Shown here: one piece after another, positions 14,845 to 15,023 of the stretch
Layout: each line of letters opens with the position of its first letter
Numbering within the stretch: position 1 is the stretch's first letter
Assembly (NCBI GenBank): GCA_964016885.1
Contig: OZ024753.1
Span: 15,066,001-15,130,000, forward strand
Direction of reading: 5' to 3'
DNA: 64,000 bases
DNA from: Eledone cirrhosa
Taxonomy: Eukaryota
Position numbers and translations under genes: made by a program
Notes under the pieces: model-generated
The model's input: the letters and a program-made list of their open reading frames with translations, nothing else
The model's database searches: none
Told to the model about the DNA's origin: nothing

Positions 14845-15023
14845 GGAACAAGTAAGACCCCGACGGCTGAGCTCAAGCCGTTTCGACGGCGAATTAGCCG
14901 TCGAAACGGCTCGAGCTCAGCCGTCGGGGTCTTAATTGTTCCTATTACCCACTCTACTACCCTAAGTATTGAGTACTTTGGTGCGTTATGGTCCACCTGG
15001 TTCCTTACCACTTTTCCTTCGTT
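14845..15023 (+). mobile_element. Family P hammerhead element with fold-back 5' end
   Basis: Arms of about 40-50 bp centred on gacggc-gaatta-gccgtc (about 14889), followed by the family P 3' tail ending ccttcgtt(TA)n. Confidence 0.8.

Follow-up and report, generated by a model that had tools for sequence, protein, structure and literature searches.

The Penelope-like elements (PLEs) of the Hydra clade are EN+ elements, in which one protein joins a reverse transcriptase (RT) to a C-terminal GIY-YIG endonuclease (Craig et al. 2021, PMC8557442). As described there, the clade is marked by RWK, DKT, a CxCX5C linker and CxxC/CxH motifs, by the lack of CCHH and by a (TA)n target, and its members carry a hammerhead in the pseudo-LTR (pLTR), an inverted 5ʹ-truncated partner and a tail. 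Hence, the architecture of inverted truncated partner, tail and (TA)n target that we describe below is already known for PLEs. How it is built is less clear: no obvious mechanism has been given for regeneration of the pLTR (PMC2377424), and the PLE transposition cycle is described as undefined (PMC8557442). Published explanations invoke self-priming on an antisense template (PMC3846280) and, for tandems, a circular RNA (PMC4209133). For the Poseidon PLE of Anolis, purified protein cuts and extends both strands in vitro, two internal RNA start sites bound the tail, the reaction needs RNA downstream of where synthesis starts, and a dimer is predicted (Frangieh et al. 2024, PMC11167929); in each of these points it resembles the present family as we read it. 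In contrast, the available sections of that paper do not cover inverted ends, the RNA 5ʹ end or a cap-derived G, and they assume a multi-copy mRNA. Our literature search, with most subscription papers and bioRxiv supplements outside its scope, found no report of cap run-off or twin priming by PLEs, and the available parts of 10.64898/2026.07.22.740005 and PMC13282606 hold nothing on either.

Two processes from other retroelements are instructive here. In L1 twin priming, both target strands prime on one RNA, and the two cDNAs cover different parts of it, giving an inversion without duplication. Unlike in L1, both cDNAs in the family described here would span one and the same 5ʹ leader, so that a palindrome results. 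The minus-strand strong-stop DNA of retroviruses is primed near the RNA 5ʹ end, runs off at the cap, and must reach the 3ʹ repeat to continue, as would the cDNAs proposed below. Unlike retroviral strong-stop DNA, however, these would be primed by the target, from two primers and with no tRNA; no RNase H domain was seen, and the product is fixed in the genome.

The window, by which we mean the whole stretch of DNA analysed, is 64,000 nt of Eledone cirrhosa (GCA_964016885.1, contig OZ024753.1, 15,066,001-15,130,000, forward strand). The copy at 14845-15023 consists of a 46-nt inverted arm and a 133-nt direct arm, flanked by (TA)n runs. BLAST of this copy against the window gave matches at 2736, 7226, 28575, 29248, 46235 and 63412, and further copies at 29104, 33482, 42646/42961 and 60842. 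In the 3.0-Gb genome of the species, a 23-mer taken from the tail is matched exactly 26,000 times. We number element positions from one A, 18 nt 5ʹ of the GAAA box, which is +1 in all subfamilies, A to E. The features of the window are as follows.

2736 to 2932, plus strand: hairpin of subfamily D, both arms reaching +1 (2792 on the minus strand, 2794 on the plus strand), with 1 inserted nt between them that is a G as read ahead of the inverted arm
7226 to 7364, minus strand: solo tailed arm of subfamily C, starting at +1 (7364), on (TA)n
14845 to 14890, minus strand: untailed (inverted) arm, element +13 to +58, its 3ʹ end at putative priming site 1 (TTCC/TAT) on the (TA)n target
14891 to 15023, plus strand: tailed arm, element +7 to about +139/141, ending at putative priming site 2 on (TA)n; it meets the untailed arm (+13) at its own +7 with no insert
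14903 to 14925, plus strand: 3ʹ half of a hammerhead, recognized from its sequence (GAAA box, stem III hairpin, GUC site, predicted cut after 14925), without the 5ʹ core box
14951 to 14974, plus strand: small bulged hairpin 8 nt 3ʹ of priming site 1, a weak fold (z -0.37) whose dot-bracket is identical to that of the hairpin 6 nt 3ʹ of site 2 in the full element
28575 to 28755, minus strand: hairpin of the older subfamily E, arm ends +12/+11
29092 to 29233, unstranded: head-to-head copy absent from the list in an earlier note on this DNA; its untailed arm (plus strand) opens with G and then +1 at 29173-29174, and the partner is a tail-only arm on the minus strand
29248 to 29450, minus strand: hairpin of subfamily C, arm ends +5/+1; the tailed arm starts at +1 (29386) with a G before it, and the 10-nt templated insert, which ends in G, copies element +3 to +11
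42634 to 43079, unstranded: older head-to-head pair, both arms past +1 (42692 on the minus strand, 42951 on the plus strand), core box lost
46222 to 46580, minus strand: long untailed arm of subfamily D; its type I hammerhead is complete, with the U3-A8 core at about 46324-46318, while +1 lies at 46280 and a TATA-like word at -30
63412 to 63602, minus strand: hairpin of subfamily B, untailed arm from +1 (63545), tailed arm from +8, 1 inserted nt

All five hairpins of the earlier note are confirmed by this list. The copies at 2736, 14845, 28575, 29248 and 63412 are each a tail plus an inverted duplicate; their axes cluster some 7-18 nt 5ʹ of GAAA, and no two loops are alike. The copy at 7226, said to be cut off at the same hotspot, is a solo tailed arm that starts exactly at +1. 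The 5ʹ core box is indeed kept solely by 46235-46329; the pair at 42634-43079 also extends 5ʹ of +1 but has lost the core. The proposed location of the hotspot, inside ribozyme stem II, needs correction: the hotspot is real, but its upper edge falls in loop II, outside the base pairs of stem II.

Locus L068 holds a full element (pLTR, ORF, long 3ʹ UTR and second pLTR) with an inverted copy head-to-head in front of it. In the tandem array L169/L170 the unit is 3,542 nt long, with an ATG at +232 and a 717-aa ORF, and the units are 99.8-100% alike. A pLTR from a partial tandem, an inverted 5ʹ-truncated partner and a tail are present at L068, L169/L170 and L171-L180. Homologs of the 717-aa protein make up 2,216 of 7,998 scored candidates, and 35 aligned proteins conserve YRDD (35/35), DKT, R-W-K, CxCX5C, YIG, CxxC and CxH; the query protein has RWR where the alignment majority has RWK, and its GIY-YIG core has one non-conserved Cys. 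Neither the ORF nor the 35-sequence profile had a relevant match in Pfam or PDB, and the EN+ organization (one ORF, RT with C-terminal GIY-YIG endonuclease) is recognized by motif only. CCHH is absent, and the insertion target is (TA)n. Since the motifs conserved in the 35 proteins are the clade marks listed in PMC8557442, the family is, by its motifs, a Hydra-clade PLE. The earlier note's assignment to the PLEs is thus upheld, by the RT/GIY-YIG ORF, the pLTR, the inverted partner and the tail. There are also differences from the clade as described in PMC8557442: its units are generally <3 kb and here 3.5 kb; PLE tails are given as 30-40 bp and here span ~80 nt; and the family has a U3-A8 core with a 40-nt loop II, a hammerhead unlike the Hydra-1_Obim row of File S2, and a predominance of short hairpins.

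How are these hairpins made? We propose, with a probability of roughly 0.75, that each consists of two target-primed cDNAs that ended at a capped start inside the hammerhead and were then joined. After a cut in (TA)n, both DNA ends would prime reverse transcription on element RNA, at sites +61 and +141, and both cDNAs would run off the predicted capped RNA 5ʹ end at +1, in loop II. Copying of the cap would leave an additional C, which reads as G and would often be accompanied by an A. Both cDNAs would then lose 0-12 nt from their 3ʹ ends before being joined, either bluntly, across 1-4 nt that are self-complementary, or by way of short templated inserts. The features from which this twin run-off is built are observed directly: the identity of the family, the geometry of the arms, the edge at +1 with its extra G, the fixed outer ends, and chimeras restarting at +1/+2/+4 or +42.

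We mapped 5ʹ ends in a sample made up of the first 90 of 100 tail-23-mer matches listed, their neighbours and the window. L001-L030 and the subfamily-B arms of L121-L180, which had been chosen on their 5ʹ-end pattern, were left out of this map, and the duplicates L001 and L053 were dropped; the overall sample comprises ~400 arms, mostly from one chromosome. Among the 221 arms unselected for their 5ʹ end, 17 end at or upstream of -9, 1 at -8 to -6, 33 at -5 to -1, 56 at +1/+2, 82 at +3 to +8, and 32 at +9 to +13, where the +13 anchor hides shorter arms; the three bins from -5 to +8 together hold 171 of the 221. Thirteen of the 17 upstream arms run on for at least 277 nt, and the reference copies among the 17 match themselves. 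With an anchor at +47, 90 of 125 arms of young subfamilies end at -5 to +17, with 8 ending upstream and 27 downstream. The exact-extension parsers under-extend old copies, and some ends at +9 to +13 and +44/+45 are parser stops. The end register is the same in five subfamilies despite different upstream sequence. Genome-wide, exact patterns, which miss variants, find 9,728 subfamily-B arms that reach +8, 4,805 that reach +1 and 1,575 that reach -8. It counts against twin run-off that only about half of the B arms at +8 reach +1, so that trimming has to be assumed. Contigs of an independent run, X1, rise 14-fold in depth at the +1 bin and fall ~50-fold after +141, a rough measure from contigs without starts or strand; their loose ends in (AT)n fall at +61 and +141. 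When mapped on the element, as the earlier note had asked, the axes show a sharp edge near +1 and not a uniform spread. Such a sharp upper limit, marked by a non-templated G, is unlike an RT stall.

In subfamily B, the base before +1, where the template has T, is G in 906 arms, C in 688 and A in 109 genome-wide. The frequency of C is a second point against twin run-off; most C's at -1 come from the partner arm, an origin accounted for in the sample only. Among arms whose base at this position does not derive from the partner, G stands before +1 in 31/49 cases, as against 14/39 at +4 to +7 (Fisher p=0.018). Eight junctions have both arms at +1, and the insert is C...G in five and a single C/G in three. 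The arrangement arm-C-N-G-arm, with a G on both arms, occurs at 175 loci genome-wide, and the middle base is A/T in 49/50 of those listed. A second, minor end lies at -4, likewise an A. Judged by the Inr and TATA consensus, both A's are in Inr-like words, and in subfamilies A-D a TATA-like word lies 29-31 nt upstream. Such a word is missing from subfamily E, and no clear downstream promoter element could be recognized; both points also speak against twin run-off. The pLTRs of A. vaga carry TATA/Inr words (PMC3846280), and D. virilis Penelope transcription starts within its own pLTR (PMC2377424). An untemplated 5ʹ G is the accepted mark of a copied mRNA cap in L1 (literature cited in PMC9341517). 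Together, these observations suggest that +1, and to a minor extent -4, is likely the transcription start, and that the extra G is likely the copied cap. With the start between the two ribozyme halves, the RNA leader would not self-cleave alone.

An RNA 5ʹ end at +1 might instead be a product of processing, either through a loop-II nuclease cut at pyrimidine-A or through use of the AG in TTTTCATTYAG as a splice site, the G then reflecting a terminal-transferase habit. The pyrimidine-A step is a labile RNA bond, the stretch from -8 to +2 resembles a 3ʹ splice site, and the TATA-like word doubles as stem II. However, the arms retain the AG (peaks at +1 and +2; 9/221 at +3) and have no common upstream exon, and we reject a splice-site origin of the boundary for these reasons. 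Furthermore, G is richer at +1 than at +4 to +7, and the second end at -4 is also an Inr-like A. We consider processing improbable overall.

Full pLTRs contain stem I, a UUGANAA core (the U3-A8 variant), G10.1-C11.1, stem II, GAAA, a 5-bp stem III and GUC; these are the three stems, the core boxes with the 3-8 pair, and the NUH site of a type I hammerhead, with a loop II of ~40 nt and a predicted cut site after +41. The PLE hammerheads described by Cervera and de la Pena (2014, PMC4209133) likewise have the U3-A8 core, unpaired base(s) opening stem II and G10.1-C11.1, and that study shares with ours motif pairs on opposite strands and a circle model for tandems. Unlike those, the hammerheads here have a stem III of 5 bp, which would make them monomer-competent by fold, and the predicted start lies inside loop II. 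L068 folds into a three-way junction with no significant stability (z 0.55), the 3 others of 4 copies fold otherwise, and an Rfam gathering search of the 64-kb window gave 0 hammerhead matches. Stem II covaries across subfamilies (TATTT/AAATA vs TAGAT/ATCTA, D vs E). The ribozyme of the earlier note is upheld as a hammerhead. As that note had also claimed, the 5ʹ half of the catalytic core is missing from the hairpin stubs. There is a small excess of ends at +41 to +43 (7/29, p=0.02, post hoc), and both arms end at +42 at 94 loci, vs 111 for a control palindrome that has longer self-complementarity and occurs in more subfamilies. We take these ends and palindromes as at most a hint, not proof, of ribozyme cleavage in vivo; the weakness of the +42 peak is itself a point against twin run-off.

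In the DNA sampled, 136 head-to-head pairs fall into 109 distinct junction types, of which the recurrent ones were seen 7, 4, 3, 3 and 3 times. These numbers leave no room for a single master hairpin, in agreement with the earlier note. A tailed arm is joined to an untailed arm in 113 pairs and to an unclassified arm in 20; 2 pairs are unclassified and 1 is tailed on both sides. The outer ends are fixed, one arm at priming site +61 and the other at +141, and one small bulged hairpin form lies 3ʹ of each site (z -0.28 and -2.55). The second-site hairpin, being beyond +141, is found only where pLTR and ORF meet; were it required, tailed arms would have been primed near the RNA front or on tandem or circular RNA. 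The inner junctions are flush in 35 pairs, overlap by 1-4 nt in 41, and hold inserts in 60, some of them copied from arm ends. Such templated inserts indicate that local fold-back synthesis does happen during joining, which counts against twin run-off. In 27/133 pairs the untailed arm is the one that extends further 5ʹ, by 4 nt or more; in 38/133 it is the tailed arm (2 of the 38 being mispaired rows of L099).

The two arms belong to the same subfamily in 123/125 classifiable pairs. Among G-capped arms, 1/32 has a partner that passes -2, vs 43/238 (p=0.038), and 0/28 arms ending at -3 to -5 have a +1 partner. From this pairing by end point we infer that both arms of an insertion share a template, one RNA. 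Against it, the arms of a pair diverge by 1.26 per 40 nt, no less than the 1.17 between random arms of one subfamily, so that divergence is no proof of a single RNA. No A-to-G hyperedited arms were found among 354 arms >34 nt in subfamilies A-D.

Long arms, too, tend to pair with their like. Among the matches listed, the first 100 arms that pass -8 form 69 clusters, 23 of which are long arms head-to-head with long arms. We checked 20 of the other 46 clusters: in 11 no partner is present, and in the rest the long arm faces another long arm (3), a tail-only arm (4), an internal fragment (1) or an arm ending at +7 (1). Just one of these 20 'single' long arms is thus paired with an arm that ends at +1 to +13. 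Of 24 matches to one pLTR-ORF junction variant, 16 run far into the ORF; 14 of these ORF-length copies pass through +1 scarlessly, the other 2 begin at +18 and +89, and none begins at G+1. The remaining 8/24 matches, at 7 loci, are chimeras:

L210: G, +1 to +225, then +2 to +61
L202: 4 to 959, then 2 to 144
L211: 4 to 182, then 4 to 61
L218 and L219: second part from exactly +42, the predicted ribozyme cut
L223 and L215/216: chimeric pLTR-ORF junction matches

We read the chimeras as probable RT jumps from an RNA 5ʹ end onto other element RNA. Since 14/16 ORF-length copies cross +1 cleanly, and chimeras restart near +1 or at +42, the long arms likely had another template. This is likely a circle, a multimer or a homologous jump, for tandems as well; the data choose none of these.

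The earlier note had explained the hairpins by an RT that stalls in the folded hammerhead, with the single cDNA then snapping back or switching strand. The ends do fall in the stem II/loop II region, the ATTC/GAAT near-palindrome at -4 to +10 gives 4-nt overlaps at some junctions, and both the common subfamily of paired arms and the templated inserts are as a snap-back would have them. Nonetheless, where the untailed arm is the longer, it holds bases that the tailed arm lacks, and the untailed cDNA has no tail; hence, no single fold-back cDNA can have given rise to these pairs, which already contradict the proposal. Flush junctions have neither overlap nor loop. Moreover, a stall accounts poorly for a sharp edge with an extra G on both arms, for an outer end fixed at the second priming site, +61, and for the clean crossing of +1 by ORF-length copies. 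We regard this explanation as very unlikely.

Self-priming on an antisense template is the published account of head-to-head PLE palindromes (PMC3846280). It does not predict that both arms carry a G before the sense-strand +1, or that there are two fixed outer ends with the same sense-strand hairpin after each, and we consider it even less probable than the stall. Least probable of all is a non-autonomous MITE-like or retrozyme-like family from hairpin masters, or an assembly artefact: a few junction types recur, but the diversity of junctions already contradicts it, five subfamilies share the geometry, each arm has separate mutations, and a contig of another run (X5 record 19) folds back at the same region.

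Two established classes were also tried and rejected. A MITE or fold-back DNA transposon has a fixed core and symmetric TIRs, whereas here junctions are of 109 types among 136 and the 80-nt tail is asymmetric. Non-LTR retrozymes, as defined in the available part of 10.64898/2026.07.22.740005, are short non-coding tandem units with a complete hammerhead; the stubs here are head-to-head and without the 5ʹ core, and the tandem unit is a 3.5-kb coding element.

Twin run-off invites a broader, more tentative reading, which we think possible but doubtful: PLEs may replicate via a genomic "strong-stop", with a promoter that splits the hammerhead on purpose. The capped leader would then hold the substrate half alone and the 3ʹ end the catalytic half; with cleavage at each end, the cap would be lost and the resulting unit-length RNA would close into an endless template. 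If so, this circular template would serve the long arms and tandem arrays, and the tens of thousands of hairpins would be RNAs copied before the circularising switch. The +42 copies would record in vivo cleavage, and L202, L210, L211, L218 and L219 would be RT jumps from RNA 5ʹ ends.

What is the significance of these copies? They offer a testable answer to how PLEs build inverted ends, tails and pseudo-LTRs. They also make base-level predictions for the existing in vitro PLE system, namely where the RNA starts, that its cap is copied, that one RNA serves two primers, and that the ribozyme is incomplete at the RNA front. The hairpins will be misfiled as MITEs by annotation pipelines, and thousands of 90-120-nt inverted repeats are a possible source of dsRNA.

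Several other features were noted in passing. Near one copy, a 714-aa frame on the minus strand of L061 is a second PLE-type ORF, of another clade; RTE-like frames (LINE RT) lie beside the element in L068, and a GIY-YIG fragment at L112:8933 represents a neighbouring retroelement. A 13-codon upstream ORF (L068:5849-6080) lies within the tail region of the predicted 231-nt leader. At L170:4171-7742, ~65 head-to-tail copies of a 55-nt ORF piece (unit 1755-1812) occupy the two-arm junction of a long insertion, resembling reiterative copying at a cDNA end. Junctions at L097, L112, L050 and L118 have A/T runs of 7-23 nt right at +1, as might result from cDNA A-tailing or a jump onto poly(A). At L015, L017 and L100, flanking host DNA is inverted-duplicated across the (TA)n target beside the element end, as if the same two-ended repair had copied flank DNA. 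In the window, the 2736 copy adjoins, at 2930-2990, another short interspersed repeat, which opens with a CTCTTTTA-type tandem and which we take to be SINE-like, and the 7226 copy lies mid-way in ~2.4 kb of degenerate (TA)n (6121-8550), the two halves of which are polarised oppositely.
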